Shown: in pieces, positions 7,218 through 53,729 of the stretch
How positions within the stretch are numbered: position 1 is the stretch's first letter
Layout of the letters: each line of letters begins with the position of its first letter
Assembly: GCF_006345805.1 (NCBI RefSeq)
Contig: NC_042998.1
Coordinates: 143,096,001-143,160,000 of the forward strand
Reading direction: 5' to 3'
DNA length: 64,000 nt
Origin: Octopus sinensis
Lineage: Eukaryota
Notes under the pieces: generated by a model
Databases searched by the model: none
What the model was told of the DNA's origin: nothing
Seen by the model: only the letters and a program-made list of their open reading frames with translations
Made by a program: the position numbers and the translations under genes

Positions 7218-8908
7218 ACAAAATAAGTGGATATTTTTTGTTTTATATTTGTGGATTGTGGAGGAAAGGACAGTGCCTAAGACCTTTTCAGGCCTACTAA
7301 GACCAGTGAGTTTTATTGTAGTTAGTGTTGCTTTTTAAACTGTAGCTGGTCAACCCCTGCAGGAAAGACAGAAGCAAGGAGAAGATTCTGAGGAAAAAGG
7401 ATTGTGAATATTGCATAATTCTGAGTAGGTGGGTGAGATGTAGACACAACAAGAATACCAAAAGGTGGAGAGAGAAGTCAGTTGAGGATGCCTGAATGAA
7501 GGAGGTATGGGACTAGCCAGCTGATAACACTGTTTACAAAATTTTATTTCTTTTTTGTTTTTAGTCAGTATTGTTTCCTATTTGTTTCTATCTAGAAATC
7601 AAAGGTAACGACTACTATTCTCTTCAAACTTTGCATTTGTGAACTGGACATCAATGTTTTGAAACTGACTTATTTTCCATTACATTTCAGACAGATTCAA
7701 TACTGAGTAGCTGAAGCAGAAATATCATCATAACAAATATTCTGTTCAGTACCACAGATTTGCTTGTTAGATGCTTGACCTTAACCACTGGAGTGTGTCC
7801 TTTAATGGCTGATAATATGTGCATCTCTGATTATGAGCAGAAGTAGTGGGAGAGCATCATAGCCATATGTTGAGAGGGATTCTTTGGGGTTTGAATAAAT
7901 GTAACAAAAGCAAAGTTTGAAGGAAATATTAGCCATTTTTTGTACTTTCTAGCAAATAAGAGATAATAGCTGCTATCCAAGGATGAAAATCATGTTACAC
8001 AAAAAGTGTAACATGATATAGATTTAATCTAAAAGTGTAACATGATCATATAGATCCCTCTCAACATATGGCTATGATGCTCTCCCACTACTTCTGCTTG
8101 TGATCAGAGATGCACATATTATCAGCCATTAAAGGACACACTCAAGTGGTGAAGGTCAAGCATCTAACAAGCAAATATAAGGTGTGCCCTTGTTCAGAAA
8201 CATATACGTTTATCAAATGAATATTAGTGATGGAATCACTATTAATACCATCTTAACATCTTTATATCCAACTTAACATGGATAAATTGTTAGAATGATG
8301 ACTAGTGTGTCATTCACCTTGAGAGGTCCTCTCATATAGATGCATGATGCGTAAAAGCACACACATATATTACAGCAGATGAGAATTGTCTGGGATGGAT
8401 TCCAGAACTAGCAGATGTGATTTCAGCATACTGTGCTTCCTCATATGCACCATGTATCAATATAAGAGGACCTCTCTGGGCAAATAACACAGTAATCAGC
8501 ATTCTAACAATACATCCACATTAAGTTGGATATAAAGTTACACATAATAATTATAGTTATATACTGACCAACAACCTCACCTCAAACCAATTGCAGTGGA
8601 ACTGTCAGTGACTAGGTTGCATTTGGTGTGATGAAAATATTGATTTCAAATTTTTGGCACAAGGTCAGTAGTTTTGGGGGAGAGGATAAGTTGATTACAT
8701 CAACCCCAGCATTCAATGGGTACTTATTTTATTGACCCTGAAAGGATGAAAGCAAAGTCAACTGTAGCAGAATTTGAACTCAGAACATAATGATTCTGCC
8801 AGCTCGTCGCCTTATGTGATGAAAATATTGACACCAAATAATAAATGTTTATTTGAAGTTAACAGAATTTATGTGTTTTTCAGTGACTACTAGTATCTTC
8901 TACACTGT

Positions 8909-12063: not shown

Positions 12064-15000
12064 TGTCAGGGCTACCGGAAGGACAAAAAGACCATTCTAT
12101 GACACCCTATTGCGGACTACCTCGTTGACAAATGACAGTGGCCTTCTCTTCATGGCAGGTGATTTCAATGGACATGTTGGACGGCATGTCGGGGGCTTCC
12201 ATGGCGTTCATGGAGGCTACGGATTTGGCTCTCGTAATTAGGAGGGAACCAGGCTGCTGGAGTTCTGCAATGCAAATGATCTTATGGTCTGCAATACCAA
12301 CTTCAGGAAACCCACCTCTCACCTAGTCACCTACCGTTCTGGCAGACACACTAGCCAGATTGACTACATCCTTGCCAGAAAAAGGGAAAGAGGGCTGCTT
12401 ATAAATGCCAAAACCTTTCCAGGCGAAGAATGTACTCCTCAACATAGATTAGTAGTTAGCGACTTCAGGATCAGAGCTAAATGGTTGCCCAGAAGAAGAC
12501 CAGCCTGGAGGAGAAGGGCCTGGAAGCTTAAAGATCCTGCAAATGGACAGAGATTTAGAGACATACTACTCGAAGCCTTTGACGAAATAGAAGGGGATAT
12601 AGCTTCACTTAATGTGGAAGACAACTGGAGATTTCTATGGGACAATCTGCTGACAGCCACTGACCAGATCTGTGGATGGAGCAAAGTACCATCTCGACCC
12701 AGAGTAACGTGGTGGTGGAACACTGTGGTTGACAGGGCTATTAGACAAAAGAGACAGGCTTGGAAGGACTGGAAGAACGGTGGTAGCAGGGAATTGTATC
12801 AGACAGCCAGAAGGGAAGCTAGGAGACAGGTTTATTTAGCCAGAGGGGAAGCGGATAAGAAAAAATTTGCCAATGTTCTGAGCCGTGAGGATGAAAGACT
12901 TGAGGTATTTCGTGTTGCAAGACAGTGTGTGAGAGAGAATTGTGATGTGGTAGGAGAGAAATGTGTCCGCATGGATGATGGTTCACTTGCGCTAAATGAG
13001 GATGCAAAGAGAGAGGCTTAGAGATGTCACCATGAAAGGTTGCTGAATAAAGAAAATGAATGGGATAAAGAGAGTCTGCCGAATGTCAACCCAACAGAGG
13101 GACCAGCCATCCGAGTTGAAAATTCTTTGGTAGTTAAAGCAATTAGAAGCATGAAGACAGAGAAAGCCCCAAGCCCATCAGGAATTACTGCAGAGATGCT
13201 CAAAATATCTGGCAGTGTCAGCTATAACCTAGTCACCCGTATAGTCAACCAGGTGATACACGAAGGAGTCATACCCAATGACTGGTGTAGCAGCATACTA
13301 GTCAACTGCTACAAAGGTAAAGGTGACGCCCTAGATACAAATAATTACAGAGGTATCGAGCTGTTGGATCAGGTAATGAAGGTTACGGAGAGGGTCATAG
13401 CCCAACTAATTAGAGAGAGAGTTAGTTTAGATGAGATGCAGTTTGGGTTCGTGCCAGGGAAAAGTACCACTGATGCTATATTCTGGTAAGGCAGCTGCAG
13501 GAGAAATACCTAGCCAAAGATAAGCCCCTGTACCTGGCTTTCATTGACATGGAGAAAGCCTTTGACAGGGTCCCCCGATCCCTTATCTGGTGGTCAATGA
13601 GGAAACTAGGGATAGATGAATGGCTGGTGAGGGCTGTGCAAGCCATGTACAGAGATGCCGTAAGTAAGGTTAGGGTTGGCAACATGTACACAGAAGAATT
13701 CAAAGTAGAGGTTGGGGTTCACCAGGGTTCAGTCCTCAGCCCCCTCCTATTGTCCTCCAGGCAATTACGGAGGAATTCAAGACAGGTTGCCCCTGGGAGC
13801 TCCTCTATGCTGACGACCTTGCTCTAATTGCTGAGTCACTATCAGAACTGGAGGAGAAGTTCCAGGTGTGGAAGGAGGGTTTAGAATCGAGGGGCCTTAG
13901 AGTCAACCTAGCTAAAACCAAAGTACTAATAAGTAGGAAGGTAGACAATCCACAAATATCCTCAGGAAGATGGCCCTGCTCGATCTGTAGAAAAGGTGTA
14001 GGTAGAAACTCTATAAGATGTACCCAGTGTAAGCTATGGACACATAAGAGGTGCAGCAATGTCAAAGGTAGGCTAACTGGGAAGATAGTTTTTGTATGTG
14101 GCAGATGCTCGGGAGCATTAACCTCTGAAAATCTGCAGAAAACAACTTCCGTCACTTTCCAGGGGAAAAAACTAGAAGTAGTTGATAGCTTCCGTTATCT
14201 AGGTGACCAAGTCAGTAGTGGGGGTGGGTGCGTTGAAAGTGTAACTGCTAGAATAAGAATAGCCTGGGCAAAGTTTAGGGAGCTCTTACCTTTGCTGGTG
14301 ACTAAAGGCCTCTCGCTCAGAGTAAAAGGCAGACTGTATGATGCATGTGTACGAACAGTCATGCTACATGGCAGTGAAACATGGGCCATGACTGCTGAAG
14401 ACATGCGTAAGCTCGCGAGGAATGAAGCCAGTATGCTCCGATGGATGTGTAATGTCAGTGTACATACTCGACAGAGCGTTAGTACCTTGAGAGAAATGTT
14501 GTACCTAAGAAGCATCAGTTGTGGTGTGCAAGAAAGACGATTGCGCTGGTATGATCATGTGGCGAGAATGGATGAAGATAGGTGTGTGAAAAAGTGCCAA
14601 TCCCTAGCAGTTGAAGGAACTCGTGGAAGAGGTAGACCCAGGAAAACCTGGGACGAGGTGGTGAAGCACGACCTTCGAACTTTAGGCCTCACTGAGGAAA
14701 TGACCAGCGACCGAGACCTTTGGAAATATGCTGTACATGAGAAGACCAGGCAGGACAAGTGAGCCCAGCCCACTTATGCATGCCTTTCCTCCCTTGGACA
14801 CAAAGACCTGTTGAGGCAAGCGAAGTCGATATCGAACCTCATCCGACGACAGGCACCCATGCCAACCCCCTTTGCTTGCGAAGACATGTTGGGGCAAGTG
14901 AAATCGAAATTGAACCAATCTTATGACTGGCACCCGGCAGATGCCAGGACCCCTGGACTGGTGGTACGTAAAAAGCACTATCCGAATCGTGGCCGATGCC

Positions 15001-15390: not shown

Positions 15391-15819
15391 TCATCGTTTC
15401 TTTTTCTTACTAGGCTCTTTGATCTTTTTAAATTGTTCATCATAATTAAGTTCATCTTCCAAGGATTTCTCCTTGGAAAGAGACGGACTAATTTGCCCCT
15501 GTTTCTTCTCGCCAATTAGAACAGCAAGTTGTAATTCATGTTTCCTTTCAAAAAATGTCAGGATTTCTTCTTTCTCTTGAATCTCGAGTAGTTTAGTTTC
15601 GATCTCTTTCCGTTTGGCTGCTCTTTGGTAAGCATCAATTTGTTCCTCTAACAAACGACTTCGTTCTTTGGTCCATAGAGAGAAGTTACTGACCTGTTGG
15701 TCAATATCTGCCTGTTCAAGGGCCGGTAACTCTGTGTTGACAATACTGTCTACTTCTTTTTCAAATTGATCGCAGTTTTCGACAACATAACCTCCAGCAG
15801 TGAGTTGTTCAAACAACGT
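15391..15819 (-). CDS. MRPS27: MRPS27 exon 10 (terminal; TLFEQLTAGG...EIQEKEEILTFFE...KKKKR*)
   Basis: cctgcag acceptor, 429 nt to TGA. Charged coiled-coil-like C-terminus. Total CDS 1488 nt = 495 aa plus stop. Confidence 0.88.
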   Translation of the reverse strand, partial: TLFEQLTAGGYVVENCDQFEKEVDSIVNTELPALEQADIDQQVSNFSLWTKERSRLLEEQIDAYQRAAKRKEIETKLLEIQEKEEILTFFERKHELQLAVLIGEKKQGQISPSLSKEKSLEDELNYDEQFKKIKEPSKKKKR

Positions 15820-16962
15820 CTGCAGGTAGAAATGAAAAGATGTTAACGTAGGGATGTAAATAATTTAATGAATAGGTGAAATATTTAACGAAATGAAATT
15901 AAAAATATCGAAGTCAATTAACGCTTTTGATAACAACCCACCACATAAAATCACTTGATACAGACTTCCAATTAATTTAAATTTAAAATCATCTAAATTA
16001 AAATCTTATCTCTAAATTCCATGTTAATTTATGTCTCAAACACCAGTTTTATAAAGGCAAAATTATTTACTGAAATAATTTTAATAATAAATTATTTATT
16101 ATTATTGTTATCAAAATTAATTGAAACAAGGGCAGTGTAGTTCAACAGAAATATGGAAACAAAAAGGTTTAAGTGATCTAAATTAAAAAACCGTCTATCA
16201 GCATTTCATAATTTATGTTCCAAATGCCATCTTTGTCATTTTCTTAATTCTTTGTTCTTTTCAATACAAAGCCAGAGTATTTCAGTTAACAAAAGGGTTT
16301 ATTCTTAAATCATCTGAGGTGCCAAATTTATATTTTTCGCTTTCAATAAACTTTAAGTGTTAAAGCAGTTGTTACTAATTTAATTTTAACCCTTTAACAT
16401 TAAGATTATTCCGTCAAATATAATGCTTATTTATTCACATTATTTTGAATTAATCATGCATTATCTCACAGCTTTGAGATGTCAACTATGTCATAGTTTA
16501 GTTTTAGAATGACATTATAGGATAAGTGGGAGAGGCTGTATTTGTCCAGTTTGAGTATTAAACAAGTAGAATATGGCTGGTTTAAAGGCTAATGGGTTAA
16601 ATATTTTCTCTTTGATTCCCTTAGTTGTAGAGTTAGTGGTATCACTTGTTTCAAGTGGACAAGTGATATTTCAAGCTAAAGATTAAATAAACCCAAGGTC
16701 AGCCATGAGCTCTATGACTCATCAGGTTTAATCCAGTTTCCATTGTGTAAGTGACTGAGATTACAACACTCTCTGCTGTATGGGATGTCATCCCAGTTAC
16801 TGCTAGAACTTATTACAGCTGTGTGGACTGGGCAATATGAAATTAAGTGTTTTGATCAAGAACACAAAACACCACTGGTCAGGGAATCAAAACTACAAAG
16901 TTAAATGCTTTTGAATAAATCCAAAGAGGGGGAAACAAAAACCTAAATAAATAAAACAAAAC

Positions 16963-18569: not shown

Positions 18570-19862
18570 AGCGAGAGACCCTTTGTCACCAGTAGGGGTA
18601 GAAGCTTTCTAAACTTTTCTCAGGGTATTCTTATTCTAGTGGTGACACTCTCTGAGCATCCACCTCCACTACTAACTGAGTCACCTAGGTAGCAGAGGCT
18701 ATCAACTACTTCTAGTTTTTTCCCCTTGGAGTGTGATGGAATCTGTTTTCTGAGTATCTGTAACATCTATTGCCCCTGTGCATCTGCCACACCCGAAAGC
18801 TATCTTCTCGGTTAATTTTCCTTTGATGTTGCTGCACCCCTTATGCGTCCATAGATTACACTGGGTACATCTTATGGGGTTTCTACCTACACCTTTTCTA
18901 CAGATCGAGCAGGGCCACCTACCTGACAGGGTGTGTGATGAGTTTGCCTTCCTACTATAACTTTGGTCTTTGCTACATTGACTCTAAGGCGTTTTGATTC
19001 TAAACCTAGCTTCCACACCCGAAATTTCTTTTCTATTTCCGGTAGTGATTCTGCTATGAGGGCCAGGACATTAGTAAAGAGGCGATCCCAGGGGCAACCC
19101 GTCTTGAATTCCTCTGTTATTGTCTGGAGGACTATGATGAATAAAAGGGGACTGAGGGCTGAATCTTGGCGGAGCCCTACTTCTACCCGGAATTCTTCAC
19201 TATACTCATTGCCAATCCTAACTTCTCTGTATAGGGCCTGTACAGCCCTTATTAACAATTCGTAAATCTCCAGTTTCCGCATCGCCCACCAGATAAGGGA
19301 TAAGGGGACCCTGTCAAAGCCTTTCCCCAGGTCCACAAAAGCTAAGTAGAGGGGTTTATCTTTAGCTAGGTATTTCTCCTGCAGTTGTAGAACCAGGAAT
19401 ATGGCATCAGTGGTGCTTCTACCTGGCACAAAACTGAACTGCATCTCATCTAAGCAGACTCTCTCCCTAATGGGCTATGACCCTCTCCGTGACCTTCATC
19501 ACCTGATCCAGCAGTTTGATACCCCTGTAGTTATTTCTATCTAGAGCATCATCTTTACCCTTGTAGCAGTTGACTATGGTGCTGCTACGCCAGTCATTGG
19601 GTATGACTCCATCATGAACTACCTGGTTTACAATGCGGGTGACTAGGCCATAGCCCACATCACCAGATGTTTTAAGCATCTCAGCAGTGATTCCTGATGG
19701 GCCGGAGGCTTTTCCTGGCTTCATACCCTTAATTGCTTTATCTACTAGGGAGCTGTCTATTGGGATAGCTGGTCCCTCTACTGGGTCAACATTTGGCAGG
19801 CTCTCCTCTTCCCATTCATTCTCCACATTCAGCAGTCTTTCATAATGGCTTCTCCAAGCCTA
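18570..19862 (-). mobile_element. internal RTE LINE fragment (same clade as 12064-15279) in MRPS27 intron 8
   Basis: ORFs 19467..19826 and 18887..19444 closely match the RT region of the + strand copy and include the PHD finger. Both ends are missing and the catalytic YADD is degenerate. Confidence 0.95.
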
Positions 19863-20341
19863 TATATATAAATTTATATATATGTACAGAAGGGGTTATC
19901 CAAGGGTTAATCCAAGCAGTGTCCTCATGAAGCACATTTACAGTAATCAAATGTATGTATGCAAATGTTTTATTTTAAGCAAGGCATACAAAGCATTTGA
20001 ATATTCTTGTGCATTCTATTTGCAGAGTGATTATATATCAAAACATAGAGTTAAAAACATACCAAATAAATTTTTCCAGTCTTTTGTTTTGATATATATA
20101 TATGTGTGCATGTGTACAGATATACACACACACGTGTGTGTATATATCATCATCATTTAGCATCTGCTTTCCATACTAGCATGGGTTAAACGATTTGATT
20201 GGAACTGGTAAGCTGCATGAAGTTCCAGTCTGATTTGACATGGTTTCTATGGCTGGATGCCTTTCCTAATGCCAACTGATGATGATGATGATGATGATTA
20301 TGAGGGTACATGTATAACAATAAACAAAATTTCCAACTTAC

Positions 20342-20587
20342 GGCAGATTTATACAGACATGGCACCTTGGGACCAGCAAGCAGTTTCTCAAGAAATAACA
20401 GCCCTTTATTAAATTTTTCATATAGAGCAAATCCATATGTTTGTAAGGAACAGCTTAATAGGTTATGGTCAGACAATTCTTTACCAATCATTATCAGTGT
20501 TTTGCCCAATAGAAGCTGGGGTTCTGTGATATCAAAATGGTCATCATAGTAAGGCTTGTTCATGTATTTCACTTTTACCCAAATTTC
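20342..20587 (-). CDS. MRPS27: MRPS27 exon 8 (EIWVKVKYMNKPYYDDHFDITEPQLLLGKTL...LYKSA)
   Basis: attctag acceptor, GTAAGT donor, 246 nt, phase 0->0. PYYDDHFDI...L.GKTL motif typical of invertebrate mS27. Confidence 0.93.
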
Positions 20588-31734: not shown

Positions 31735-31995
31735 CAGCTCCCGTGCAGGTAGCACGTAAAAACACCTTTTGAGCATGGTCATTGCCAGAACCACCTGACT
31801 GGCCCTCGTGCCGGTGGCACATTAAAGCACCCACTACACTCCCAGAGTGGTTGGCATTAGGAAGGGCATCCAGTTATAGAAACATTGCCAGATCAGATTG
31901 AGTCTGGTGCAGCCTCTGGCTCACCAGTCCTCAGCCAAACTGTCCAACCCATGCCAGCATGGAAAGGGGACATTAAACGACAACGATGATAATGA
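31735..31995 (+). mobile_element. RTE 3'UTR-only copy (representative of many 150-300 bp RTE-tail copies in both orientations)
   Basis: Matches 15020-15279. Similar copies at ~4130-4315, 5720-5950, 6940-7120(-), 24620-24790, 25990-26170, 29040-29205, 30020-30175, 40205-40460(-) and 53000-53190. Confidence 0.85.
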
Positions 31996-32179
31996 TATAT
32001 ATATATATATATATATATCATCATCATTTAACGTCTATTGTCAATGCTGGCATGGGTTGGATGGTGTGATCAGAGCTACCAAGCTGGGGGGGGGGATGCA
32101 CCAGACTTCAGTCTGATTTCACATGGTTTCTATGGCTGGATGCCCTTCTTAACACCAACCACTTTACAGAGTGTGCTAG

Positions 32180-32483
32180 GTGCTTTTATGTGGCACCACA
32201 TTGGTGCTTTTACATGGAACTACATGGGTGGTTTTATATGGCACCACATGGGCACTTTTACGTGGCACTTCACAGGTGTTTTTTTATGACACTGCATGGG
32301 CACTTTTATGAGATGCTGCATTTTATGTTGCATCATACAGGTGCTTTTACGTGGCATCACACAGGCGCTTTTCTGTGGTACTTTGATGTGACATCACATG
32401 GGCGCTTTTATGTGGCATCGCATGGGCACTTTTATGTGTCATTACATGGGCGCTTTTACATGGGATCGTATGGGTACTTTTAC
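32180..32483. repeat. ~24-bp minisatellite (~12 units) derived from the RTE 3'UTR motif
   Basis: Units like GTGCTTTTACGTGGCACCACATGG, contiguous with a minus-strand RTE tail at 32018-32180. Confidence 0.85.
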
Positions 32484-37745: not shown

Positions 37746-40003
37746 TAAGTAACAATTGAAGGAGGAGGAGTAGCAATATCCAAGGAAATATTATCTAACT
37801 TTTTTTAACAAAATATTAAAAAATGTTAATAAAACTGTCATTACACAAATAGTTTCTCAAATTTGTAAAGAATTCTTTAAATTGTAATTTACCAAAGAAA
37901 ATATCCAAACGGAATCATAAACAATAGAATAACAACAAAAGCTACAAAGAATTGGTAATATTATTAACCACTATAGAAGGCATTCCTTTTTGTTTGTCTC
38001 TAATGCTCTCAGAACAAATAGTATATTTTTTTATCAATTCTTCCATTAATATTTTTTGTTTTGTTTTTAATATTGATTATTATTTTTTTTGTTTTGTCTC
38101 TTCATTATTTAAAAAAATAATTAGTTTTGTTTTTTTAACGAAATGACATCATCTAAATCCAATTCATACATATAATATGGAGGCAGTGGTGATGGTGGTG
38201 ACGGTGGCTCATATTTCAGAATAGGAGTAAAAATAATAAAATAAATAAAATAAAATTCCAGAAATTTCTTTTTGAATATGTCATGTCTTTTTATTTATTT
38301 TTTAATCTTTTATTTAGGAAAGAACACAATGCTCTTGACTCTTTGCAGAGCCTCCAAGAGTTGTTAGGGGTAAGGTGGGGAGGCAGAGAGTGAAGAATGT
38401 ATCCTTAAACTTCTCAGGGCATCAACTGACATAAGTTTCAATGTCTAGCAGCTGACTTGGTAGAAGCACAGAAGATTATCCACCATCTTTCCAACAAGAA
38501 TTTTGGCCACCATTTTTTGTTTTTAATTCATTATCTCGGTCATTTGTGAGGTTGTGGGTTTGCAGAGCTCTTAGTATGCCAGACAAAATTCTTAGTGTCA
38601 TTTTTGTCTGTCTTTACATTTTAAGTTCAAATTCCTTTTACATAGTCTATAAAATAAGTACCAGTTGAGCACTAGTGTTGATGAAATCAACTAATCCCCT
38701 CCCCTGAAATTGCTGGCCTTGTGTCAAAATCTGAAACCAATATCTTTACCATTTGTGAGATGGCGAGCTGGCAGAAGTATTAGCATGCTCAGCCGCCTTT
38801 TGCCCATCCTCTCTGATAGGGGCACAAGAACTTACACACACGATAGTAAATTCTACCTACCAAATTCAATCACAAGGCTCCAGTCGGCTGCACCTGAAGC
38901 CAGTGGCTGGGAAGTAAATTTCCTAACCACACAGCCATGAGTTCAAATTCTGCCAAAGTCAACTTTGCCTTTTATCCTTTCAGGGTCAATAAAATAAGTA
39001 CCAGTTTGAGTACTGGGGTTGATGTAATTAACTTTAATCCTTCTCCAAAACTATTAGCCTTGTGCTGAAATTTGAAACCAATATCTCTACTATTCATGAA
39101 CATGCTTATAAATTCAAAAAACAGGAAAGCACTCATAATTTTCAGAAACATTTTTTTACTCTCAGAATTGTCAAAACATGGAATATTCTTGTAAGCTGTT
39201 AGAACACTGAATCTTTCAAAGAAATTCCATATTCTCTGAAATTCACCAATTCTACTCCTGATGTGCTTATGTAGCCTTTCCTTTTTATGATTCCCATAAC
39301 ATCCCCTTTTCTGTCTTTTTGTATTCTATTCTGTGCACTATGCATGTACTTTTAGCTTTCATTGCTGTCTTTCTTTAGTTGACATATATCTCTGCTCTCT
39401 GTCCCCTCTTTTACTCTTTTTTGATATATGATAGTACACCTCAGCACTATGCTGTATGCAGTGGTGTTCAATTCAGTCCCAAAGCTAGGTGCTAAACCCT
39501 CCAAAATCTTACAGACAGACACACACACACACACACAGGTGTATATACATCATCATCGTTTTAACATCCACTTTTCCATACTTGTATGATCTGGAGTTTA
39601 TTTAGGCAGATTTTCTATGGCCAGTTGCCCCTCATGTTACTAACCTCTGCCTGTTTCCAAGGTAATATTTCTGTGTGGGCATACATGCTTTTACAGTATA
39701 TTGGAAATCAAATGAGATTGCTTGTATGAGTTGTATGAGTTGTATTTACAACTATCATGCAATGGTAAGAGGAAACACACACACACATACACACACACAC
39801 ACATACAAAAATACATACATACATACATACATACATAAAAACGATAGGCTTCTTTCTGTTCCCCTCCACCAAATCAAGGCTTTGGTTGGCTTGGAGTAGA
39901 AGACACTTGTCCAAGGTGCTACACAATGGGATTGAACTTTAAACAATGCAGTTGGGAAGCAAACTTCTTAGCCACACATCTATATATACATATATATGTA
40001 TAT

Positions 40004-40175
40004 ATATTATTAATACACAACTATGAGAGAGAATCCACATAGTGGATTCTCTCTCATAGTTGTGTATTAATAATATTTACTGAATCTCAGTTTTTTATAT
40101 GCTAGGCCACTGGTGTTTAAACTGATGTTATTAAATTAATATCCAATTTTTTCACCCTCTTTTTGACTTTAATTA
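40004..40175. repeat. fold-back element A: perfect 35-bp inverted repeat plus tail in (TA)n
   Basis: 40004-40038 is the exact reverse complement of 40042-40076 (3-nt loop). Confidence 0.9.
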
Positions 40176-40475: not shown

Positions 40476-40853
40476 GTATCAGTTAAAGTAGTGAGGAAGG
40501 CAAGCGATTAGTCAAAGCAGGACTAGGGCGTTTAAATTCATTTAATTCAATCTAAAAATAGTAAAATAATACAAAACTGGTGAAGATAGTAGAGACTATC
40601 TATACTATCTTTACCAGTTTTGTATTATTTTACTGATTTTAGATTGAATAAAATGAATTGAAATGCCATAGTCCTGCCTTGGCTAATTGCTTCCCTTCCT
40701 CACTACTTTAACTGATACGTACTGGTTCAAAAGTAAATTACCAACTGCCTGCTGCTGGTCTAACTGGAATTTTGGAGCGTTACCCATTGGAGCGAGCACT
40801 CAGAAGACATACCTATTTGTTTGGGTTACCTTGACCTAAACTCCTCATATCTT
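40476..40853. repeat. fold-back element B: ~120-bp diverged inverted repeat plus tail
   Basis: GTATCAGTTAAAGTAGTGAGGAAGG... (40476) pairs with ...CCTTCCTCACTACTTTAACTGATAC (40718); centre ~40597. Confidence 0.9.
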
Positions 40854-43350: not shown

Positions 43351-43848
43351 GTATGTATATGTATATATGTGTGTGTGTTTGTGTGTGTGTGTCTTTGTGC
43401 CTGTGTTTGTCCCCCACCATCGCTTGATAACCGATGTAGGTGTGTTTACGTTTCCGCAACTTAGCGGTTGACAAAACAACCGATAGAATAAGAACCAGAC
43501 TTACAAAGAATAAGTCCTGGGGTCAAATGACTGAAAAGAATAAAAGAAAAAAAAGAATAAACTGATACCGGTTGGCAAGTGGTGGTGGAAAACAAATATA
43601 ACACACACACAGGGAAATCAGCTGCCCTCTGGACACAGATTTGGTTAGAAAATACAAGAGAAAGAGTTTGCAAATCCAGTACACGAGACAAACTTTCAGC
43701 TTCATATCTTTTATTATTGGAGCAACAGGATACATTCCAATCCGTCTAGAATAGTATATGACTGAACTTGGAATTTTGGGGAAGGATGTGTAAATCCTTA
43801 GCTCATATGTTACAAATGATCATGATAACTGAAACTATAAAAATTTGT

Positions 43849-44039
43849 TGTGTCTGGGAGAGTCATTTTCTTTTTGTGCCTTATAATTTAACACACTCAC
43901 CGGTAAAATTTCCACTTCTTTCTTTTTTTTTTTTCCTAAAATTTTCGTTGCGTCTTGCAACCTTTTCAATAGTGGAAATTTTACCGGTGAGTGTGTTAAA
44001 ATATAAGGCACAAAAAGAAAATGACTCTCCCCAAACACA
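43849..44039. mobile_element. MITE-like inverted repeat (~68-bp arms)
   Basis: 43849-43916 pairs with 43971-44039. The outer arm sequence resembles dispersed repeats at ~1030-1110, 50278-50620 and 51205-51300. Confidence 0.7.
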
Positions 44040-44213
44040 TCAGAATATGCTTCAACACACGAACTCACATAAAGAATCTTGCAAACCAAATCCAAAAACG
44101 AAATATAAAAATCTGGAAGACCTTCTTAAGATTTAAAGGATGATGGTTAAAACAAGATACATCCCTTCACAACACACACAAACACACACGCGCGCGCGTG
44201 CATGCATATATAC

Positions 44214-44244
<31 letters not shown>

Positions 44245-45168
44245 TGTATGTTGTATGTATGTATGTATGTATGTATGTATGCATGCATGCATATATGTAT
44301 GTATGTGTGTATATGCATGCATGTATGTATGTATGTATGTATGTATGTATGTATGTATGTATGTGTGTGTGTGTGTATGTATGTACATACTTATATGCAT
44401 ACACGATAAGCTTCTTTCATTTCCTGTCTACCAGATCTATTCACAAAGTTTTGGTCAATTAAGGTCTCTAGTAGAAGATACTGCTATGCAGTGGATATGA
44501 ACACAGGACCACTTGGATATGAACACAGGACCACGCCCGCACCAATACAAAAAAAGAAATTTAAATTTTTACGTTTTGCACCTGCGTCCCTCACTTTTTT
44601 GTAAATAGGCTTTTAGAGCAGAGATAGAAAAGACAAGAGAGACACAGAATTGCTCTGCTGCAAATCAGATACTGGAGTGTGTCCGTTAATGATGCAATGC
44701 CAATCAGTTTGGAGGAAAGGCTTTTGGAGTCTTATAGTCAATTGATCTGGAACATGTTACAAACCTTAACAACCACACTGTCAGGGTTGACTGTACACAC
44801 ACACACAAACACACACACACACACACACACCACACACACACACAGAGAAAAGGCACACGACTTAACTCTTTGAATAGAGGGATAAAACACTTATCAGTTT
44901 TGTTGTTTATATTAAATAGTCGATGACGTGAGTCAGAGCTTGTGGCATTGAACTACGTTTATCAGTCAACAATATCAGTGAATACAGTTCATTGAGTACA
45001 TGGAAGGTACATTTTGTATGTCTGTGAACGCATATAGGTGTATGTGTGTATATGTGTGTATGTATGTACGTGTGTATATGTGTATGTATGTGTGTGTGTA
45101 TGTATATATATATTTTGCCAACTTTGGACATACGACAGTTTAACATAATAACAACGATATATATATAT

Positions 45169-45644
<476 letters not shown>

Positions 45645-46953: not shown

Positions 46954-47020
46954 GCATATATATATATATATCTATATATATATATATATATATAATATAT
47001 ATATATATATATTATATATA

Positions 47021-47476
47021 GAGGGCATTATACATACATGCCAGATGGCATTATACATACATGCCACACGCTAAGAGGGACAATTAGTCATTTCTACCAA
47101 AAATATTACTAATCCCACCGAATGCAATTTTTCAAAGTAAGACATTTAAAAAATATAGACCTGTATCACAGTGATTTCATACTTACGTATTCCACTGTGA
47201 TACAGGTCTATATTTTTTAAATGTCTTACTTTGAAAAATTGCATTCGGTGGGATTAGTAATATTTTTGGTAGAAATGACTAATTGTCCCTCTTAGCGTGT
47301 GGCATGTATGTATAATGCCCTCTGGCATGTATGTATAATGCCCTCTATATATAAATTAATATGTTCAATAAGAAATAATTATTTTCGAAATTTATTCTCT
47401 TATGAGGTTTTCACGCTTTCTACCTGACAATTTCTTGTTAAGTTTTCCTTATTAAGTAGTTGTCCTTAATTGCTAA
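47021..47476. repeat. fold-back element D: 153-bp near-perfect inverted repeat plus tail in (TA)n
   Basis: 47021-47173 pairs with 47193-47345 with one mismatch seen. Long (TA)n on both sides. Confidence 0.93.
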
Positions 47477-51690: not shown

Positions 51691-52182
51691 GGGAGAGACG
51701 GGAAGAGAGAAAGATAGTTTGTGAGAGGTATATAGAGTAGAAGGGATTGTGAGTATATGGGCAAGAAATATTGGAAGAGAGGAAACAGAAAAATGAAATT
51801 GAAAGAAAATTCAATTGAAATGATAAGCAAAATGCTGGATGAATTGAAGGTCTTTAATGGTCATATTTTTATTTTTAGAGAAAAACAGTTTTAATGTAAT
51901 TGATGTGAATTTGTTGCGACCAAATTCATGTCATTGGCGCCTGCATGAATATACGGTTAAGAAGTTCGGTCGCAACCACCTGGTTTCGGGTTTAGTCCCA
52001 TAGCCGGACACCTTGGGTAAGTTTATTTTGCTATAGATTCGAGCCAACCAAAGCCTTGTGTGTGAATTTGGTGGACGGAAACTGCCTGGAAGCTTCTCAT
52101 ATCTATATAATATATATATATATAATATATATATATATAATATATATATATTATATATATATATATCTATATATATACTATA

Positions 52183-52215
<33 letters not shown>

Positions 52216-52217
<2 letters not shown>

Positions 52218-52772
52218 AGATAATGGTGTCTTTGAGATCCAAAGGTGTCAGGTAATGCTGAATAAGTGCTATAGACAGACCATAGTTAAGTTCCAGATTT
52301 GTTAATTTTGCGAATAAGGGGTTCAACGCTGGTTCTATGTCAGCGTGTGTATATAAGAATTTTTTGCGTAATACGATAAAAGAAACCAAGACTGTGTAGA
52401 TATTAGAGCATTTATAGATAGAAGGTCTTACAGCTGTTTCTGGGATATTTATTAATTATATCTCTTCATCGGAGGCGGTGTGAGAGGATGGTTAAGTCAT
52501 AGTTTAGATGTGATACAAAATAGAGAGTGAGGTGGAGGAAAGAAAATAGATGCATACATATCTTGTATCTATTTTCTTTCCCCCACCTCACTCTCTATTT
52601 TGTATCACATCTAAACTAACTATGACTTAACCATCCTCTCACACCATCTCCGATGAAGGGATATAATTAATAAGTATCCTAGAAACAGCTGTAAGACTTT
52701 CTATCTATAAATGCTCTAATATCTACACAGCCTTGGTTTTTTTTAATCTTATTACGCAAATAATTCTTATAT
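52216..52772. mobile_element. fold-back element E with hammerhead-like motifs (putative Penelope-like/retrozyme-type non-autonomous element)
   Basis: ~205-bp diverged inverted arms 52351-52772, a 135-bp tail on the left and (TA)n on both flanks. Confidence 0.7.
52646..52697 (+). ncRNA. minimal type-I hammerhead ribozyme-like motif (mirror copy on - strand at 52425-52476)
   Basis: atct-CCGATGA-a-gggatat..loop..gtatcct-a-GAAA-CAGCTG-TA-agac. Core is a CUGAUGA variant (U4C) with stem II, GAAA, palindromic stem III ACAGCTGT, GUA cleavage triplet and stem I tct/aga. Confidence 0.65.
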
Positions 52773-53629
52773 ATATATATATAATATATTATATTATATA
52801 TATATATATTATATATATATATATATAATATATATATATATATTTTATATATATATAATTCTTATACATGAATGTTGTTGAGTGTGACTTCGAATAATAA
52901 ATTTGTACTCTATAAAGGCATAAAGTAGCCCACCAGATCAATGTAAAATTGTTTTTATTGTAAATTAGCATAAAAACAAACATTAATGTATATATATAGT
53001 TGGTGCCGGTTACACGTAAAAAAAAATCTAGTGCATTCTGTAAAATGGTTGGCATTAGGGAGGACATCCAGCCGTAAACACTATACCAAAGCAGACAGTC
53101 GAGCTTGGAACACTCTTTCGGCTCTTATCAAACCATCCAGCCCATACCAGTCCTGAAGACGGATGTTAAATGATAATGATGATGATGATGATGTGTACGT
53201 TTGGGTCTTTGATAACCGGAACCGGTGTAGGTTTGTTTACGTCCCCATGATCTAGCTCTTCGGTAAATATGAGCAGTAAAAGAAGTATGAACTAAGGTCG
53301 ATAAATTCGACTGAAAAAAAGAGAAAACTTGCAAGGTGGTGCCCCAGCGTGGTCGCACCCCAGTGACTGAGTCAAGTAAAAGATAAAAGGTTAAAAGAAT
53401 TACTTAGGTCGCTGAGAGATTTACTCCCTGTTCAACGGTATTCATCCGATCAGGTCCATTGATTAACGTTAGGTAGGTAGCAAAGTCCTTTTCGTCTATT
53501 ATATGTTCCTGGGGGACGGTATGCTCTTTAACTCTTTCTCTCTTTCCCTATCTCTGTCAGTCTATATATCTGTCTCTCTCTCTGTCTCTCTCTGTGTCTT
53601 TGTCTCTCCCTGTTACATCTCGATCTTCT

Positions 53630-53729
53630 NNNNNNNNNNNNNNNNNNNNNNNNNNNNNNNNNNNNNNNNNNNNNNNNNNNNNNNNNNNNNNNNNNNNNNN
53701 NNNNNNNNNNNNNNNNNNNNNNNNNNNNN
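53630..53729. other. assembly gap (100 N)
   Basis: Run of exactly 100 N, i.e. a placeholder of unknown size. Adjacency across it is not proven. Confidence 1.

Follow-up and report, generated by a model that had tools for sequence, protein, structure and literature searches.

A palindromic, tailed insertion with two opposed hammerhead-like motifs in an octopus (TA)n array, probably derived from a Penelope-like element

Results

Organization of the locus

We analyzed a stretch of 64 kb of Octopus sinensis DNA, hereafter the window, and all positions refer to it. The only host gene discussed here is MRPS27, whose exons lie on the reverse strand at 15391–15864 and 20186–20587; the exon region 15490–15822 is 98% identical to the Octopus vulgaris MRPS27 protein and 63% identical to that of Argonauta, and it matches the Pfam family MRP-S27. 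Broken LINE-type reverse transcriptase (RT) copies, which we take to be RTE, surround these exons at 12242–14762 (forward strand, with RVT_1 matches) and 18887–19859 (reverse strand).

The element under study is a palindrome embedded in a (TA)n microsatellite. Upstream lies a SINE head on the forward strand (51931–52098, BLAST), presumably of a tRNA-derived octopus SINE, which hosts the TA array. This head, noticed earlier at the entrance to the TA-rich region, is real: it has 15 further matches in the window at 67–89% identity, most of them followed by AAGAAGC-type ends and then TA, TG or CA microsatellites. The left (TA)n array, the target site, spans 52099–52215 (TRF) and is followed by five segments: a one-sided 135-bp tail at 52216–52350, on the reverse strand and 3′ of the sense arm, beginning with TATATA at the arm boundary; arm 1 at 52351–52556 (reverse strand), which bears the tail and reads as the pLTR-like 3′ end of a 5′-truncated element; a head-to-head junction at 52557–52561, the inversion point of this copy; arm 2 at 52562–52772 (forward strand), an inverted 5′-truncated copy with no tail; and the right (TA)n array at 52773–52857 (the TRF call spans 52768–52857). 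TATA is present at both arm ends. The two arms share 192 identities in 211 aligned columns, with 14 substitutions and 5 gap columns, and BLAST gives 390/428 (91%), in agreement with the earlier note, which had put the arms at about 205 bp and 90% identity. The tail has no right-hand counterpart by BLAST and TRF calls arrays on both sides, so the one-sided tail and the flanking (TA)n described there hold as well.

BLAST finds no second copy of the element in the 64-kb window. No direct tandem repeat of the unit occurs at this locus, no partial-tandem pLTR copy occurs in the window, and the 557 bp of the element hold no open reading frame (ORF). An 80-amino-acid frame runs through the tail; none of the 47 candidates for it among longer proteins passed, which is weak evidence, and it matches no Pfam family. 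The lack of an RT/GIY-YIG ORF at the locus is expected for a truncated copy. Two minor features lie to the right: a 12-bp stretch at the right end of the element (52760–52771) recurs directly after the right TA array (52856–52867), as a short duplication or by chance, and a 100-base assembly gap (53630–53729) begins about 860 bp further on.

Hammerhead-like motifs in the two arms

Each arm contains a minimal type I hammerhead-like motif with a U4C core and a loop-less palindromic stem III, at 52646–52697 on the forward strand and, mirrored, at 52425–52476 on the reverse strand (read 52476–52425). The forward motif is parsed as follows: stem I 5′ strand, 52646–52649; core CCGATGA, 52650–52656; an extra A, 52657; stem II of 7 bp, 52658–52664/52674–52680; a second extra A, 52681, before GAA, 52682–52684; the stem III palindrome ACAGCTGT, 52685–52692; A17, 52693; and the stem I 3′ strand of 4 bp, 52694–52697. 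Cleavage is predicted between 52693 and 52694, and at the mirror position 52429/52428 on the reverse strand. Both copies are damaged: the forward motif has a stem I mismatch at 52646 and a G at 52674, and the reverse motif is mismatched in stem I at 52475 and in stem II at 52463. Both also depart from the canonical CUGANGA / GAAA / UH core, reading CCGATGA in either arm with an extra purine before GAAA.

A relaxed descriptor requiring C-N-GA-N-GA, 6 or more of the 7 stem II pairs, GAAA, the palindrome, UH and 3 or more stem I pairs recovered the two motifs as the sole matches in the 64-kb window, at the places where the earlier note had put them. A single match arose across 300 locally shuffled windows, a null that flatters the motif since the descriptor was shaped on that same motif. 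Rfam does not recognize the motif as the hammerhead proposed before: there was no hammerhead match up to E 10 (24 matches for 3 kb and 1 for the bare motif, all below the gathering score), and the miRNA-family matches reflect only the long hairpin. Pattern scans elsewhere returned 18 loci in viral contigs and 16 in metagenome contigs, which we rejected as relatives; these 34 loci are put down to chance because stems I and II never occurred together in them, as judged by eye, and a BLAST search with the element found nothing at E 0.01. Further pattern scans gave 1 and 0 loci in viral contigs and 0 and 0 in genome contigs.

As single molecules, neither native copy is predicted to adopt the hammerhead fold (z −0.09 and 0.04; stem I pair probabilities 0.0). 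When two molecules were folded together, the palindrome paired between them in 3/3 cases, and the catalytic stem I was not formed in the native copies. In a transcript of either direction, predicted pairing with the opposite arm takes up 48–51 of the 52 ribozyme bases. Because the motifs lie on opposite strands, each transcript would carry one ribozyme together with its antisense, leaving no dimer in cis; of the dimeric action suggested before, the pairing of the palindrome is thus retained and a cis dimer at this locus is not. The damaged stems and a transcript hairpin of roughly 200 bp that buries the motif lead us to predict that the window copies are inactive, and this locus is probably inert, an ordinary decayed insertion.

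An abundant repeat family with variable fold-back points

Part of the element stretch is contained in 20 of 24 listed sequencing runs, under 4 organism labels. In all four runs analyzed further (3 organism labels), 6418, 7582, 3312 and 249 contigs matched the element, so the other genomic copies anticipated in the earlier note exist, and the locus is a single degraded member of a highly abundant octopus repeat family, which may already be catalogued. Contigs were aligned to 52190–52800 at 80% likeness; 52190–52225, which includes the outer end of the tail, was left out, as was summed depth as a measure of copy number. The details given below come from the best-supported rows of longer tables, in which copies are unphased.

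First, the family extends beyond the part present at this locus: a common loose end behind 52552 continues upstream, past the centre of the window copy, in 35, 24, 19 and 5 contigs of the four runs. Possible PLE (Penelope-like element) protein motifs in the letters of these loose ends were dropped as chance, by eye. Second, two 3′ end states occur. In one, as in the right arm, the element stops into TA at 52350 (27 and 17 contigs in two runs); in the other, the tail is joined to the arm, with at least 31 letters on each side, in 10 of the 32 records shown. Third, fold-back points vary among copies, as seen in 18 joints with 34 mapped arm ends spanning 52567 to 52729. Twelve of these joints were kept from the best 15 of 101, the three others being "opposite strand" joints dropped as products of the palindromic reference, and 6 came from the best 12 of 58 bridging rows; two joint ends in or at the tail were dropped and 7 were shifted by eye for bridging letters. 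The 12 kept joints skip the centre, leading from the left arm or tail to the right arm. This variability indicates that the palindrome is a by-product of each insertion and not a fixed derived element.

These results bear on two other origins of the palindrome. The near-perfect palindrome with TATA at both arm ends, and the several other palindromes in the window, would suit a DNA transposon of the MITE or foldback type that duplicates a TA target, the hammerhead motif being captured or incidental and the tail a separate insertion; the joint 52425 to 52704 moreover recurs at high depth in 3/4 runs, as an amplified short palindrome would. Fixed terminal inverted repeats with a constant interior were not seen among the copies, however: fold-back points are spread over about 160 bp, the family continues past the centre of the window copy, the tail–arm junction is found in 10/32 contigs shown, and the full motif is rare in shuffled sequence. 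We regard a MITE origin as very unlikely. Still less credible is an artefactual palindrome, made from one arm by fold-back in the library or the assembly. None of the contigs shown spans the whole stretch, and short-read assemblies are known to mis-handle such structures (PMC8557442, cited here and below from excerpts, as are all PMC sources); yet the arms differ by the 14 substitutions and 5 gap columns given above, and each carries private departures from the family majority (52374, 52463 and 52475 in the left arm; 52582, 52646 and 52674 in the right arm).

Family majority of the motif

At the stem sites, the family majority is G at 52646 (73–92%), A at 52475 (94–100%), A at 52674 (95–100%) and C at 52463 (68–93%). 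A hand reading of these base shares restores 4/4 stem I and 7/7 stem II pairs, and with them the layout of a minimal type I hammerhead, with stems I and II around the core and a palindromic stem III.

Position 4 was assessed in two ways. The best 40 of 85 variant rows include no C>T at 52651 and no G>A at 52471, and a T4 majority is unlikely, as T4 would then carry more depth than most of the variant rows shown. Among the best 24 of 908 loose-end consensus rows, two (20 and 7 contigs) read C4 and one, of 2 contigs, has T4 within a core degraded at other sites. Judged from these reads, C4 is very likely the majority state of the family, with a minority of T4 copies possible. The core change had been left between a family-level variant and an inactivating mutation; C4 appears to be the family majority and not a lesion of this copy.

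Polymorphisms among the best 40 of the 85 rows fall in loop II (52665, 52672 and a 4-base deletion) and at the extra purine (52681), with a further G-C/G-U switch at 52680, observed at 52442. The 19 positions of the core and stem III show no polymorphism in the same rows (p 0.22, not significant), nor do these rows, from unphased copies, contain a compensatory two-sided change in a stem. The A>T changes at 52665 and 52672 have parallel shares of 38/33%, 38/26% and 4/2% in three runs, which suggests subfamilies that differ between organism labels; if linked, the two changes would add two pairs to stem II.

Discussion

A Penelope-like insertion as the preferred explanation

We propose that the locus is a dead insertion of a TA-targeting PLE, most like the Hydra clade, composed of the element's 3′ end, a tail and an inverted 5′-truncated second copy; we consider this reading probable. 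PLE insertions are reported to be 5′-truncated; many have a truncated copy in inverted orientation at the 5′ end, and a tail of 30–40 bp at one end (PMC8557442). The inverted, 5′-truncated copy with a variable junction is seen both at this locus and in the 18 joints shown, and an optional one-sided tail is present as well, though at 135 bp against the usual 30–40 bp. Hydra-clade families, which are known from Octopus too, insert into (TA)n and have a hammerhead close to the 3′ end; in one of them, Penelope-13_HM, an inverted copy places a hammerhead on each strand (PMC8557442). The octopus element shares the (TA)n preference, with arrays on both flanks and TA loose ends at 52350 in two runs, a trait that is not Hydra-specific since Naiads likewise insert in (TA)n (PMC8557442). 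The earlier description of a ribozyme-bearing PLE derivative that targets TA thus keeps its architecture and target, both of which match published PLEs (PMC8557442), and loses the notion of a fixed derived element, given that fold-back points vary.

The insertion may be pictured as follows. An RT/GIY-YIG protein would have nicked the (TA)n array behind the SINE, and reverse transcription primed inside the element RNA would yield copies with or without a tail. Here the tail and 3′ end would have been copied, with synthesis ending after some 205 nt of the arm; another truncated cDNA would have been joined head-to-head. The two opposed motifs then follow from each arm containing the element's 3′ hammerhead. 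The founder would already have carried CCGAUGA and the A–purine mismatch at the base of stem II, and any cutting would be the work of a dimer, formed by tandem or separate RNAs that pair through the ACAGCUGU palindrome. With the rate given in PMC13282606, the 6.8% difference between the arms translates to some 9 million years, a rough estimate.

Much of this signature is shared by a non-autonomous short retroelement, retrozyme- or SINE-like, that has a PLE-type hammerhead, borrows PLE enzymes and never had an ORF of its own: it would leave the same truncation, inversion and tail, it is in keeping with the very high abundance, and the 557 bp yielded neither an ORF nor a protein relative. However, the family extends upstream of the arm. 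As to the retrozyme version, metazoan retrozymes are direct tandems of 150–450 bp, in coral with canonical hammerheads (PMC7229834; direct tandems also in PMC6765202), and a direct tandem copy is absent at this locus. Metazoan non-LTR retrozymes do resemble the octopus element in being short and non-coding with a type I hammerhead, but they are direct tandem repeats, whereas the element here is an inverted, truncated and tailed single insertion (PMC7229834). We therefore hold a non-autonomous origin to be unlikely.

Comparison with known hammerhead-bearing elements

Reading the locus as a PLE insertion, we compared it with described families. Named Hydra-clade relatives are Hydra-1_Obim, Hydra-1_Amil, Penelope-1_NV, Penelope-1/2_SK and Penelope-13_HM (PMC8557442). 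The hammerhead lies about 100–170 nt from the 3′ end in three families compared and 146 nt from it in the octopus element. By our own count from the table of PMC8557442, an ACAG-nn-CTGT stem III occurs in 4/25 families, and a 1×1 mismatch under stem II, as in the octopus motif, is U-U in 14/25. The differences are that the pair under stem II is U-U or G-C in those families and A–purine here, and that the octopus element lacks a stem III loop and has a 135-bp tail. It is also distinct from Hydra-1_Obim, which has another sequence and another hammerhead (PMC8557442). Short motifs of the element were unmatched in the octopus Naiad and Hydra consensus sequences of the PMC8557442 supplement, where line breaks and divergence can hide matches, and in the 5,371 characters of methods and table text of the PMC13282606 supplement. 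In O. vulgaris, 190 PLE families account for 6.83% of the genome (PMC13282606); PMC8967140, in its excerpts, only counts Penelope copies.

Minimal hammerheads of metazoan PLEs have a stem I of 4–5 bp, a stem II of 7–8 bp, an extra base after A9 and a palindromic stem III, show low activity as dimers, and occur in S. mansoni as opposed pairs 100–700 bp apart (PMC4209133). The octopus motif is likewise of type I, with a 4-bp stem I, a 7-bp stem II, an extra base after A9 and a palindromic stem III suited to dimers. It differs in U4C and in the extra purine before GAAA, the core variant reported there being U3-A8. The core change sets it apart from all families tabulated: U4 is found in 25/25 listed families of PMC8557442 and in 44/44 table rows compared from PMC4209133, numbers of limited weight since the descriptors behind these tables largely require U4.

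A further comparison is with PAc, a Poseidon element of Anolis carolinensis, for which AT-rich nicking and an internal priming that explains the tail are described; its hammerhead is protein-assisted, mutants insert unimpaired in vitro, and RNA ends at the cut site were not found (PMC11167929). The octopus element resembles PAc in its AT-rich target and in the two 3′ end states that define the tail. The PAc ORF starts at stem II, whereas the ATG inside the octopus CCGATGA core meets a stop after 5 codons.

The U4C core

An identical core change is known from a viroid hammerhead that is much slower in vitro and yet allows infection (Ambros and Flores 1998, as cited in PMC3088659). In the viroid it is a sequence variant, whereas in the octopus it appears to prevail among the copies of an abundant animal retroelement. 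By analogy with the slow viroid ribozyme, and with a founder that likely had both CCGAUGA and the A–purine mismatch at the base of stem II, the ribozyme of the octopus family is probably weak or dispensable.

The architecture described here is already known, and apart from a missing ORF link, a longer tail and a changed core the locus fits the published PLE picture. U4C as the core found in most copies of a PLE family would be a modestly new ribozyme variant. Our literature search found no prior report of such a majority state; Lunse 2017, Ambros and Flores 1998 and Arkhipova 2017 were outside its reach and may already report U4C or cleavage-site junctions in PLEs. Because published searches use CUGANGA-type descriptors, to which hammerheads with U4C as a likely family trait are invisible, U4C-type families would be undercounted. 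PAc can insert in vitro without an intact hammerhead (PMC11167929), and Naiads have none (PMC8557442). A successful family with a core change known to slow cleavage offers a natural test of the hammerhead's role in PLEs: a dead ribozyme would support a passenger, and a cutting one with 5′ junctions at the cut would point to a role in vivo.

Junction ends near the predicted cut

Finally, we analyzed where the mapped junction ends fall relative to the predicted cut. Eighteen of the 34 ends lie in 52685–52707, within about 14 nt of it, and 11 of the 18 joints have an end there; the neighbouring bins hold 1 end in 24 nt upstream and 7 in 28 nt downstream. The deepest joint, 52425 to 52704, has 3 letters of microhomology, recurs in 3/4 runs and could have its end exactly at the cut. 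For the pile-up, both nominal p values (3e-5 and 0.006) are inflated: (i) the bins were picked post hoc and the rows are a best-supported subset, (ii) each joint contributes two ends that depend on each other, and (iii) alignment edges near the variable site 52698 may pull ends to 52701. Much the same pile-up would be expected from RT stalling at the ribozyme, from fold-back at the palindrome or from TCT microhomology. We accordingly treat it as a lead and not a result, a weak hint that sets the octopus family, with junction ends clustered near the cleavage site, apart from PAc, for which no RNA ends at that site are reported in the excerpts of PMC11167929.

A stronger proposal is that a high-copy octopus PLE family multiplied with a U4C hammerhead still active in vivo as a dimer, and that this cleavage fixes the 5′ end of many copies; in our judgement this is rather doubtful. 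If it were true, the pile-up at 52685–52707 would be a genomic footprint of PLE ribozyme cleavage, of the kind sought without success in Anolis, and whole ribozyme families would escape CUGANGA descriptors.

Other palindromes in the window

A second TA-flanked palindrome lies at 47020–47476, with 96% identical arms (47020–47346), each ending in a 23-bp tandem pair, and a one-sided tail of 130 bp. It contains no match to the hammerhead core and has no similarity to the first element, and its short motifs have no match in the Craig 2021 supplement (PMC8557442), with the same limit from line breaks and divergence. A 9-mer common to the tails of both palindromes was discarded (E 1.3). The second palindrome is possibly a hammerhead-less remnant of a TA-targeting PLE. 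Six more palindromes of 79–400 bp with 72–98% arm identity occur at 40476–40718, 45112–45215, 40001–40079, 43846–44042, 8260–8537 and 31813–32197; the region is rich in fold-back insertions. In addition, an inverted pair of 123 bp is found at 7758–7880 and 8054–8176, with 96% identity and 173 bp between its members.
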